DNA of 2,345 nucleotides, taken from IMG/VR virus record IMGVR_UViG_2778261454_000008. One strand, given 5' to 3'. Under the pieces are notes generated by a model. The model did not search any database. It was not told where the DNA came from and saw nothing but the letters and a program-made list of their open reading frames with translations. Positions 72-2,345 of this stretch are shown one piece after another (the first letter of the stretch is position 1; every line of letters starts with the position of its first letter). Source of the DNA: a virus. Taxonomy: Duplodnaviria; Heunggongvirae; Uroviricota; Caudoviricetes. The position numbers and the translations under genes are program-made.

Positions 72-227
72 ATGAAGCAGCAAAAGGCGATGTTAATCGC
101 CCTGATCGTCATCTGTTTAACCGTCATAGTGACGGCACTGGTAACGAGGAAAGACCTCTGCGAGGTACGAATCCGAACCGGCCAGACGGAGGTCGCTGTC
201 TTCACAGCTTACGAACCTGAGGAGTAA
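72..227 (+). CDS. hokD: Hok-family type I toxin (HokD/RelF), 51-aa small membrane toxin
   Basis: ATG at 72 to TAA at 225-227; AGGAG Shine-Dalgarno at 58-62, 9 nt upstream. Translation MKQQKAMLIALIVICLTVIVTALVTRKDLCEVRIRTGQTEVAVFTAYEPEE has the Hok architecture (N-terminal hydrophobic helix, conserved Cys, charged tail) and matches my recollection of E. coli HokD/RelF. Too short to appear in the supplied ORF track. Confidence 0.9.
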   Translation: MKQQKAMLIALIVICLTVIVTALVTRKDLCEVRIRTGQTEVAVFTAYEPEE

Positions 228-234
228 GAGACCC

Positions 235-256
235 GGCGGGGGAGAAATCCCTCGCC
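235..256 (+). other. RNA stem-loop in the hokD 3' UTR (9-bp stem GGCGGGGGA/UCCCUCGCC, one G-U pair, GAAA tetraloop)
   Basis: Hand-paired: 235-243 with 248-256, loop 244-247 GAAA (a GNRA tetraloop). Lies 8 nt after the hokD stop. Function not established; hok mRNAs are known to carry structured 3' ends (fold-back inhibition elements). Confidence 0.45.
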
Positions 257-296
257 ACCTCTGATGTGGCAGGCATCCTCAACGCACCCGCACTTA

Positions 297-327
297 ACCC
301 GCTTCGGCGGGTTTTTGTTTTTATTTT
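297..327 (+). terminator. Rho-independent terminator ending the hokD transcript
   Basis: Perfect 6-bp GC-rich stem ACCCGC/GCGGGT (297-302 with 307-312) closed by a TTCG tetraloop (303-306), followed by the T-run TTTTGTTTTTATTTT (313-327). No A-run precedes it, so it looks unidirectional. Confidence 0.8.
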
Positions 328-443: not shown

Positions 444-695
444 ATGATGAACATCGAAGAACTGCGTAAAATTTTTTGTGAAGATGGCCTCTATGCTGTG
501 TGCGTTGAAAATGGAAATCTTGTTAGTCATTACCGCATTATGTGTTTGCGAAAGAATGGGGCTGCGTTAATTAATTTTGTGGATGCTCGGGTCACGGACG
601 GATTTATCTTGCGCGAAGGTGAGTTTGTCACTTCATTACAGGCATTGAAAGAGATCGGAATAAAAGCTGGCTTTTCTGCTTTTTCAGGAGAATAA
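444..695 (+). CDS. rem: Rem, Qin-prophage small protein of unknown function (83 aa)
   Basis: ATG-ATG at 444/447 with GGAAGGA Shine-Dalgarno at 432-438; 83 codons plus TAA at 693-695. Translation MMNIEELRKIFCEDGLYAVCVENGNLVSHYRIMCLRKNGAALINFVDARVTDGFILREGEFVTSLQALKEIGIKAGFSAFSGE matches my recollection of E. coli K-12 Rem, and the hokD-rem-ydfU-Q gene order matches Qin. Noticeably AT-richer than its neighbours. Confidence 0.85.
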   Translation: MMNIEELRKIFCEDGLYAVCVENGNLVSHYRIMCLRKNGAALINFVDARVTDGFILREGEFVTSLQALKEIGIKAGFSAFSGE

Positions 696-761
696 ACTCA
701 TCTACAATCTTGCGCGGGGCTGAACTCCCGCTGAGTAACACCGTGCCACCGGAGAAAACCG

Positions 762-1040
762 ATGGCACGTAACGCAAAATATTACAATTCTGATAATTCG
801 CCCGTTCTTGCCTGCACGCACGGGCGGTATTCTCACGCATTCAAGTCTGAATGGTTCCAGCACCCTCCATGCACTGCAGAACAGGCCGAATGGCTGATTC
901 ATTCTTACCGCAGGCGCGGGTTCGAGGTTAAGAAAGCTCTCAGTCTCGACTATCGGCACTGGATAATCTCTGTCAGGCTGCCTTATTCCGAACGCCCACC
1001 ACGTGCGTCCCGCACTTTCCAGCAACGGATCTGGAGGTAA
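762..1040 (+). CDS. Hypothetical small basic protein (92 aa), unrecognised family; candidate gene translationally coupled to ydfU
   Basis: ATG at 762 preceded by GGAG at 751-754 (7-nt spacing). The open frame exactly fills the otherwise empty gap of about 345 nt between rem and ydfU. Its TAA stop at 1038-1040 lies 1 nt before the ydfU GTG (1042), and the ydfU Shine-Dalgarno GGAGG (1033-1037) sits inside its last codons. The translation has mixed hydrophobic and charged composition with 4 Trp, unlike the Arg/Pro/Ser-rich antisense ORF that overlaps it. No homolog recognised. Confidence 0.4.
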   Translation: MARNAKYYNSDNSPVLACTHGRYSHAFKSEWFQHPPCTAEQAEWLIHSYRRRGFEVKKALSLDYRHWIISVRLPYSERPPRASRTFQQRIWR

Positions 1041-1041
1041 C

Positions 1042-2091
1042 GTGCGGGTATTACTTAGACCTGTTCTGGTGCCTGAGCTTGGGCTGGTGGTCCTTAAGCC
1101 GGGCCGTGAATCCATACAGATATTTCATAATCCTCGAGTGCTGGTGGAACCGGAACCAAAAAGCATGCGTAATCTGCCATCCGGAGTCGTTCCTGCCGTT
1201 CGCCAGCCGCTGGCGGAAGACAAAACATTGCTGCCGTTTTTTAGTAACGAACGGGTGATTCGTGCTGCTGGCGGCGTTGGCGCATTGTCCGACTGGCTAT
1301 TACGTCATGTTACATCCTGCCAGTGGCCTAATGGCGATTACCATCACACTGAAACAGTCATTCACCGTTATGGTACCGGCGCAATGGTGTTGTGCTGGCA
1401 CTGCGACAACCAACTGCGTGACCAGACATCGGAATCACTGGAGCTGCTTGCTCAACAAAACCTGTCAGCATGGATGATTGACGTCATCGGTCACGCAATA
1501 AGCGGTACGCAGGAGCGTGAATTATCTCTGGCTGAATTATCCTGGTGGGCGGTCCGCAATCAGGTGGCGGACGCGCTACCGGAAGCGGTATTACGTCGTT
1601 CGCTGGGGTTGCGTGCGGAAAAAATCCGCTCAATGTACCGTGAAAGCGACATCGTACCGGGAGAGCAGACCGCCACCAGCATACTGAAACAGCGCACAAA
1701 AAATCTTGCACCGTTGCCTCACGCCCACCAGCAACAAAACCCATCACAAGAAAAGACGGTGGTAAGCATCACCGTTGATCCAGAGTCTCCGGAATCTTTC
1801 ATGAAGCTGCCTAAACGTCACCGTTGGGTTAAGGAGAAATACACACGCTGGGTTAAGACACAGCCGTGTGCTTGCTGCGGTATGCCAGCCGACGATCCGC
1901 ATCATCTGATTGGTCACGGGCAGGGCGGAATGGGAACCAAAGCACATGATCTCTTTGTGTTGCCTTTGTGCAGAAAGCATCACGACGAGTTGCATACGGA
2001 TACCGTGGCATTTGAAGAGAAGTATGGCTCCCAACTGGAGCTGATTTTTCGATTTATCGATCGCGCGCTGGCAATTGGTGTGCTGGCCTAA
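1042..2091 (+). CDS. ydfU: DUF968-family prophage protein YdfU (349 aa from the GTG at 1042)
   Basis: Long open frame ending at TAA 2089-2091. I prefer the GTG at 1042 as start because GGAGG lies at 1033-1037 and it gives 349 aa, the length I recall for K-12 YdfU; the track's upstream GTG at 1003 has no Shine-Dalgarno. The C-terminal segment [64 protein letters not shown] is the conserved DUF968 region as I recall it. Confidence 0.85.
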
Positions 2092-2108: not shown

Positions 2109-2345
2109 ATGCGTGATATTCAGATGGTTCTTGAGCGTTGGGGGGCATGGGCGGCTAATAATCATGAAGATGTGACCTGGTCGTCCATTGCCGCCGGTTT
2201 TAAGGGATTAATTCCTTCAAAAGTAAGATCTCGTCCGCAATGCTGTGACGATGACGCGATGATCATTTGTGAATGTATGGCTCGCCTGAAAAAAACAACA
2301 GCGATTTACATGATTTATTGGTGGACTATTATGTCGGCGGCATGA
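2109..2345 (+). CDS. quuQ: Antitermination protein Q family (phage 82 / QuuD / QuuQ-like), N-terminal 78 codons only; frame ends at TGA 2343-2345, probably frameshift-truncated
   Basis: ATG at 2109 with GGAG at 2098-2101 (7-nt spacing), 17 nt after the ydfU stop. The N-terminus [39 protein letters not shown]...[10 protein letters not shown] matches my recollection of 82-type Q antiterminators, which are about 250 aa. The track's TTG start at 2094 is less likely. See the frameshift finding. Confidence 0.7.

Follow-up and report, generated by a model that had tools for sequence, protein, structure and literature searches.

The window analysed here, i.e. the whole stretch of 2,345 nucleotides, represents the hokD-rem-ydfU-Q stretch of a Qin-type prophage, as deduced from its ORF list and from family searches (Table 1). 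It is 99.96% identical, with one gap, to E. coli 13P484A, and 97.8% identical to K-12 as far as the end of ydfU, beyond which K-12 has a different Q gene. Homology to K-12 MG1655 ends exactly at 2091/2092, and the Q gene found downstream in K-12 is ydfT (250 aa), placing a mosaic joint immediately behind the stop codon of ydfU. The Q-like gene of the window contains a run of seven A residues at 2288-2294, where E. coli 13P484A has eight. The resulting frame shift ends the Q-family antiterminator at TGA 2343-2345, shortening it from 125 aa to 78 aa, and may reflect either a true pseudogene or a homopolymer sequencing error.

YdfU matches PF06147 (DUF968) over residues 160-346 (E = 4e-77), and DUF968 has been placed in His-Me finger group 7 together with YbcO (PMC5714182). 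In related loci, the C-terminal third of ydfU (~1800-2091), which codes for the His-Me finger end, has at least two allelic forms that diverge strongly from each other. One of them reads ...CMTCGNQADDPHHIIGHGLGG...KWKA, and the other is a 21-letter stretch. These divergent C-terminal forms join nearly identical N-terminal parts, indicating recombination inside ydfU. Upstream in the window, the Rfam model of the Hfq-binding sRNA isrK gives a match below threshold (25 bits for a gathering score of 50, E = 0.01) at 236-317 (+), which overlaps the terminator hairpin 296-313 downstream of hokD. A promoter-like sequence at 681-708 (+) (TTTTCA, 16 nt, TACAAT), identified by consensus alone, covers the end of rem and lies ~55 nt before the ATG of the gene described below.

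Table 1. Genes and predicted elements of the window, with the evidence for each
Feature	Position	Strand	Evidence or remark
hokD	72-227		followed by an intrinsic terminator at 296-313
rem	444-695	+	annotation; upstream neighbour of the ORF
Predicted hairpin at the ORF start region	742..769	+	MFE fold, variant pairing
Shine-Dalgarno-like GGAG	751..754	+	sequence; 7 nt before ATG 762
ORF, 92-codon CDS, ATG to TAA	762..1040	+	Escherichia-type PHROG 1212 member; identical to WP_012304870.1
ORF codons 1-26, N-terminal extension	762..839	+	dN/dS, pLDDT, missing from 66-aa homologues
ORF codons 27-92, conserved core and tail	840..1037	+	whole PHROG 1212 profile, dN/dS
Predicted 14-bp hairpin over the ydfU start region	1009..1048	+	fold, z-scores, variant pairing
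ydfU, 349-aa DUF968 protein with His-Me finger nuclease domain	1042..2091	+	PF06147
Q-type antiterminator, N-terminal part	2109-2345	+	Q-like gene

Between rem and ydfU lies a 92-codon ORF. The ORF list bears out exactly the frame opened by ATG 762 and the translation given in an earlier, sequence-only reading of this stretch, and the Shine-Dalgarno motif noticed ahead of the ATG is present as GGAG, most homologues carrying the weaker CAGAG in its place (upstream conservation table). Between the in-frame TGA at 732-734 and position 762, the frame of the ORF contains neither ATG nor GTG nor TTG, which leaves ATG 762 as the only possible start. The claims made about the other end of the ORF also hold. 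Its TAA (1038-1040) is separated by a single C (1041) from the ydfU GTG (1042-1044), and the Shine-Dalgarno GGAGG of ydfU (1033-1037) lies within W91 and R92, its final two codons. The ydfU frame is open across 967-1040 as well, since its nearest upstream in-frame stop is TAA 964-966. The first in-frame start in this open frame is GTG 1003; we do not favour it as the ydfU start, because GTG and ATG replace each other at exactly the 1042 position and no constraint is seen in the overlapping frames.

The sequence-only reading had taken K-12 to have no annotated gene between rem and ydfU. Indeed, NC_000913.3 has no feature between rem (b1561) and ydfU (b1560), and the K-12 MG1655 genome harbours an identical 92-aa ORF at 1644306-1644584 (-). 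The ORF is therefore unannotated in MG1655, but not elsewhere: it is a member of PHROG 1212 (see below) and carries the RefSeq PGAP name hypothetical protein WP_012304870.1. The exact protein is found on at least 1000 contigs, where it is labelled 'hypothetical protein' or 'Prophage protein'. Of 5426 complete E. coli genomes, 4314 (~80%) contain the ORF DNA, with up to 7 copies per genome, and the gene is carried by the inducible phages PhiR42_1, HannyBb and Tritos. Our literature search found no description of the ORF and no experimental evidence for its translation in K-12. The ORF is not new to sequence databases, and it is a curation gap in the MG1655 annotation rather than a new kind of element. 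What is new here is limited to three points, namely the MG1655 omission, two predicted start-region hairpins and the rejection of the idea that the ORF is a split-off domain of YdfU.

Coding evidence and protein family

We collected 245 loci, which gave 97 distinct nucleotide versions of the 89-92 aa gene, and the frame is open in all 97. Among Escherichia-type loci, 238 of 241 harbour an intact 89-92 aa frame (92 aa, n=180; 90 aa, n=56; 89 aa, n=2), the other three being disrupted. Indels in the ORF are multiples of three, and the ATG is invariant. In codons 27-92, substitutions occur mainly at third positions, with many columns showing an invariant amino acid and a variable third position. 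The dN/dS values calculated by the Nei-Gojobori method are 0.56 for codons 2-26, 0.11 for codons 27-70 (core) and 0.06 for codons 71-92 (tail).

As a frame control, dN/dS values and stops were determined in all six frames for 49 sequences. Over codons 27-92, only the ORF frame combines a dN/dS of 0.11 with zero stops. Four other frames have dN/dS values of about 1.8-3.4, and the antisense frame that shares third positions reaches 0.18, yet contains stops in 49/49 sequences. A 137-aa antisense ORF at 702-1115 was dismissed as a shadow frame, with stops in 21/49 homologues and a dN/dS of ~2. The multi-genome alignment that had been suggested as a check thus revealed third-position bias and purifying selection in the ORF frame only, and the refutation tests set beforehand (frame-breaking changes, absent third-position bias) came out in favour of the ORF. 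Its product had been described as protein-like. On these sequence comparisons (intact frames in 238/241 loci, dN/dS of 0.06-0.11, frame control), the ORF is almost certainly a real protein-coding gene.

A search for homologues with tblastn and HMM profiles, also suggested beforehand, revealed a family of 66-aa proteins across Enterobacterales. Residues 27-92 of the ORF match positions 1-66 of the 66-position PHROGs profile phrog_1212 (E = 1.7e-35, 121.9 bits), which describes a phage protein family of unknown function. Homologues of 66-69 aa with 35-50% identity were found by tblastn and protein searches in phages and prophages of Salmonella, Klebsiella, Citrobacter, Enterobacter, Kluyvera, Cronobacter, Yersinia, Edwardsiella, Erwinia and others, and N15 gave a weaker tblastn match (33% identity). 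An exhaustive profile search of 1.84 billion representatives yielded 102 clusters, nearly all of stand-alone proteins of ~66 aa; the few long matches correspond to a duplication, assembly chimaeras or unrelated repeats. In a 37-sequence alignment mixing 92-aa and 66-aa forms, the invariant residues are H34, C37, Q41, Y49, R52, G53, L60, D63 and L73. The C-terminal tail of the ORF, PPRPSRTFQQRIWR, is basic and Trp-rich, and its conserved pattern in the alignment is P-R-P-S-R-x-[WF]-Q-x-[RK]-x-W.

An AlphaFold2 model built with the family alignment has a mean pLDDT of 71, with values of 87-89 in the ten-residue blocks covering residues 31-70. Residues 1-23 (pLDDT <50) are predicted to be disordered. 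The model predicts a strand (27-33), a helix (39-52), two strands (55-60 and 67-74) and a lower-confidence helix (84-91), the core being a predicted beta-alpha-beta-beta arrangement. A fold search of BFVD returned a single match at E <= 0.001, Orf QD1 of N15, and the fold searches provided no functional lead. No Pfam family matches the ORF at E <= 1, and none matches three 66-aa homologues at the gathering score, one of them having a chance-level Glyoxalase match. NCBIfam, PADLOC and PDB sequence-profile searches with the ORF or the 66-aa homologue(s) tested gave nothing.

The 26-aa N-terminal extension is confined to the Escherichia and Shigella forms and absent from the 66-aa homologues. Its codons vary at all three positions and carry in-frame 2-codon indels, and its dN/dS is not distinguishable from that of other frames. 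None of the 49 sequences has a stop in it. As no alternative start exists, the extension must be translated to make the conserved core, and it seems to be tolerated rather than selected for its sequence. A derivation of the extension from the 3' end of a DUF1367 gene, read in another frame, was considered; neither the nucleotide nor the peptide comparison showed any similarity.

The two start regions and Rho

A hairpin is predicted at the start region of the ORF. Its stem pairs 742-748 with 763-769, with inner pairs between 750-752 and 759-761. The inner stem takes up two Gs of the Shine-Dalgarno motif, the loop holds residues 753-754 and the A-run after them, and the main stem contains the UG of the AUG. 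The MFE fold of 700-830 has a z-score of -2.4. The hairpin forms, with the AUG paired, in 41/42 variants, and 91% of cells pair in 30 variants compared with 15-40% in slid controls. Two outer pairs switch from U-A to C-G between prophage lineages, with U-G intermediates; this covariation evidence is modest, as the switches largely reflect one lineage split. The hairpin could account for the invariant Ala (GCA or GCG) at the second codon.

At the junction with ydfU, the stop/start geometry proposed in the sequence-only reading to reflect translational coupling is conserved. The stop-N-start arrangement is kept in 237/238 loci, with GTG or ATG as the start: TAACGTG in 221 loci, TAATGTG in 12, TAACATG in 3 and TAGCGTG in 1. 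The downstream gene codes for a 348-352 aa DUF968 protein in 205/238 loci; it is off the contig end in 16/238, and ~16 have a shorter, apparently disrupted frame. Tight spacing is normal throughout nin operons, and the junction alone therefore says little about function.

For the ydfU start region, folding predicts a second hairpin of 14 bp, with 1009-1022 as one arm and 1031-1037 plus 1042-1048 as the other (dG -19.3 kcal/mol, z = -2.7). It buries the Shine-Dalgarno GGAGG and the GUG of ydfU, with the UAA of the ORF plus one base forming an internal bulge. Three other variant classes are likewise predicted to form it (z -2.8 to -3.2). Pairing is kept in 91% of cells over 31 variants, and no compensatory changes were found, only one-sided changes that keep G-U wobble pairs, six of seven being C-to-U in the 5' arm. 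The absence of two-sided compensation can be explained by the fact that the Shine-Dalgarno, the start codon and the coding constraint fix the 3' arm. The synonymous substitution rate dips at the junction, with dS values of 0.24 in ORF codons 79-89 and 0.19 in ydfU codons 2-16. It is 0.4-1.3 in most other intervals, and ydfU codons 47-91 are similarly low (0.23-0.29). The predicted hairpin would fit translational coupling of the ORF to ydfU, which we regard as moderately probable.

The 5' part of the ORF lies in a region with C > G (700-880, GC skew of -0.16 to -0.18). The terminator upstream of ydfU was reported to be among the strongest Rho-dependent terminators in K-12, and expression of ydfU, not of rem, rises in rho and nusG mutants and with bicyclomycin (PMC9160355). 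The C>G plots in that study were presented as those of 'untranslated sequences' of the genes studied (PMC9160355). The C-rich region 700-880 coincides with the interval of this reported terminator. It is plausible that, in the lysogen, weak, hairpin-limited initiation would expose the 5' part of the ORF to Rho.

Genomic slot and rival explanations

In annotated lambdoid phages, the gene for the 66-aa protein is found in the nin region. In mEp237 the gene order is DUF1367, 66-aa gene, YbcO, RusA and Q; in SPN3UB it is a gene annotated as NinB/Orf recombination mediator, 66-aa gene, NinG and Q; and in phiES15 it is YbcN, 66-aa gene, YbcO-type HNH, RusA and Q. We surveyed the context of family members in 50 loci from GTDB genomes and phages. 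A junction nuclease is encoded downstream in 46 of them, NinG in 18, YbcO in 14, DUF968 in 7 and RusA in 7, and the upstream gene codes for DUF1367 in 28 of 36 loci. The order of the window, with the ORF followed by ydfU and the Q-like gene, corresponds to this nin-region setting. The rem gene is directly upstream of the ORF in only 91/229 loci; it is not an obligate partner or neighbour. Homology between prophage types starts ~20 nt before the ORF ATG.

DUF968 proteins also occur without the ORF. No PHROG 1212 member was found upstream of YdfU homologues in mEp460, SfII, Klebsiella phage 1 LV-2017, YeP3, Vibrio H20 or P1 (HMM E > 0.1), a set that includes phages of Klebsiella, Yersinia and Vibrio. 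In P1, PdcB is a full-length YdfU homologue with 26% identity (L302, 1477-2748). PdcA, a 66-aa protein encoded just before PdcB, was considered as a potential family member and proved unrelated (HMM E > 0.1), and a relationship of the N-terminal part of YdfU with DUF1367 or with the ORF was similarly rejected (hhalign probability <1%). As each occurs without the other and they share no similarity, the ORF and DUF968 are independent modules joined in Qin-type prophages. A specific physical partnership between the ORF product and YdfU is doubtful, because any of four nuclease families can be the downstream partner and because YdfU homologues occur without the ORF.

The family represents an independent gene cassette of the nin (delayed-early) region, which is normally located after DUF1367, directly before NinG/Rap, YbcO, DUF968 or RusA, and upstream of the antiterminator Q. 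In Qin-type prophages, the nuclease in this slot is YdfU. The ORF would be read from the delayed-early transcript, and a ribosome ending at UAA 1038-1040 would melt the hairpin that buries the ydfU Shine-Dalgarno and GUG, so that YdfU synthesis would be coupled to translation of the ORF. In the K-12 lysogen, this stretch is probably silenced by the Rho-dependent terminator reported upstream of ydfU. As for the protein, it might be a small accessory factor of the phage recombination/junction-processing module and bind DNA or a partner through its basic tail. This accessory role is our best guess for its function given the placement of the family in front of junction nucleases, and it is a tentative one that we hold with low confidence. 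Overall, the ORF is very probably a protein-coding gene of lambdoid (Qin-type) prophages, corresponding to a PHROG 1212 cassette. A more ambitious version is unlikely, in which PHROG 1212 proteins would be dedicated accessory or regulatory factors for the nin-slot nuclease, and translation of the ORF in Qin-type prophages would additionally serve as a checkpoint, through the hairpin-gated start and the Rho terminator in the C-rich 5' part, on YdfU and Q and hence on the late genes.

Other explanations were weighed against the same data. The sequence-only reading had envisaged that the ORF might be the N-terminal domain of an ancestral ~440-aa DUF968 protein, detached by a frameshift; the two frames run open side by side across 967-1040, where one indel would join them. 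This proposal did not survive the comparative analyses, as we found no consistent fused form in the 102 clusters, the sole PHROG 1212-DUF968 composite (P0097) being a 96-aa deletion product on one contig. Moreover, 66-aa members stand alone beside NinG, YbcO or RusA, YdfU homologues with 26-58% identity are preceded by other genes, with their own start in the corresponding place, and an hhalign comparison of YdfU with the ORF gave a probability of 0.2%. Such a split is very improbable and, as judged from sequence, the ORF protein is not a domain of YdfU. That the region is a non-coding ydfU leader containing a Rho-dependent terminator, with the ORF as a chance open frame, would agree with the very strong terminator and the 'untranslated sequences' reported upstream of ydfU (PMC9160355), with the C > G bias over 700-880 and with the lack of an annotated gene in MG1655. 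However, the low dN/dS restricted to the ORF frame, the invariant ATG, the indels in multiples of three and the protein-level homologues down to 35% identity in other genera make this highly unlikely, and the lambda nin region illustrates that the same DNA can hold both a terminator and a coding sequence.

It could also be imagined that the peptide is functionless and that the act of translating the ORF is what matters, either by opening the ydfU start or by keeping Rho off, in the manner of a regulatory upstream ORF. The predicted hairpins at both start regions, the conserved junction and the Rho terminator reported in the interval are in line with this idea. Nevertheless, the amino acid sequence of codons 27-92 is under strong purifying selection, and the same protein is kept across Enterobacterales before different genes and with different junctions. 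We therefore consider a functionless peptide quite improbable; a regulatory role may add to the function of the protein, yet cannot be the whole story. Finally, a homologue is labelled 'toxin to Rem' in ON470583.1 (L295, 2001-2279), and the ORF adjoins rem in the window, which raises the question of a toxin paired with Rem. It is extremely unlikely that the ORF codes for one: rem is immediately upstream in fewer than half of the loci and missing from that position in the labelled record itself, and the 66-aa homologues have DUF1367 upstream rather than Rem. Rem is an antirepressor of DicA (PMC10448788), no toxin-family match was obtained in Pfam, NCBIfam or PADLOC, and we found no paper backing the label. 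Thus, a protein-coding cassette of the nin region remains our preferred explanation.

Significance and comparison with known systems

MG1655 has the most heavily curated bacterial genome annotation, and a gene whose protein-coding nature is shown by comparative evidence is missing from it. At least one published Rho-termination analysis counts the sequence upstream of ydfU among 'untranslated sequences', and the omission affects the reading of transcription and translation data in Qin. It is worthwhile to add the ORF to the MG1655 annotation. The consistent placement of the family before phage junction nucleases makes the ORF protein a reasonable candidate for work on phage recombination, and gating of ydfU and Q expression by the ORF is worth testing.

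Among the known systems close to the ORF is the DUF968/YdfU/P1 PdcB group, which provides its immediate neighbour within the same transcription unit in Qin-type prophages; the two are not homologous, and each occurs independently. In translationally coupled gene pairs, a known mechanism is that a hairpin masks the downstream start site. The ORF-ydfU pair shares with them a stop and a start 1 nt apart, a downstream Shine-Dalgarno inside the upstream coding sequence and a predicted burying hairpin; its own hairpin differs in being known by prediction and in showing no compensatory changes.

In lambda and P22, small nin genes (ninC, ninD, ninE and ninF) that look non-essential are packed stop-to-start between a NinB-like gene and NinG/Q, in a region that is read as a delayed-early transcript and is known to carry terminators. 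The packing and setting of the ORF are like theirs, and the possible Rho access at its 5' part would resemble the lambda nin-region terminators. There is no sequence relationship with these genes, the ORF matching none of the Pfam nin-region families (NinE, NinF and similar).

The known proteins that most resemble the ORF product are the PHROG 1212 members, including mEp237_051, SPN3UB gp61, phiES15 gp17 and PY54 ORF47. They share with it the full-length profile match, the same conserved residues and the genomic slot just before a junction nuclease, upstream of Q. The Escherichia/Shigella form differs by its length, 90-92 aa compared with 66-69 aa, owing to its variable 26-aa N-terminal extension, and by its context, without DUF1367 upstream and paired almost exclusively with DUF968. 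The ORF is a stand-alone protein of 92 aa rather than ~66 aa, i.e. a length variant, and its membership of PHROG 1212 stands.
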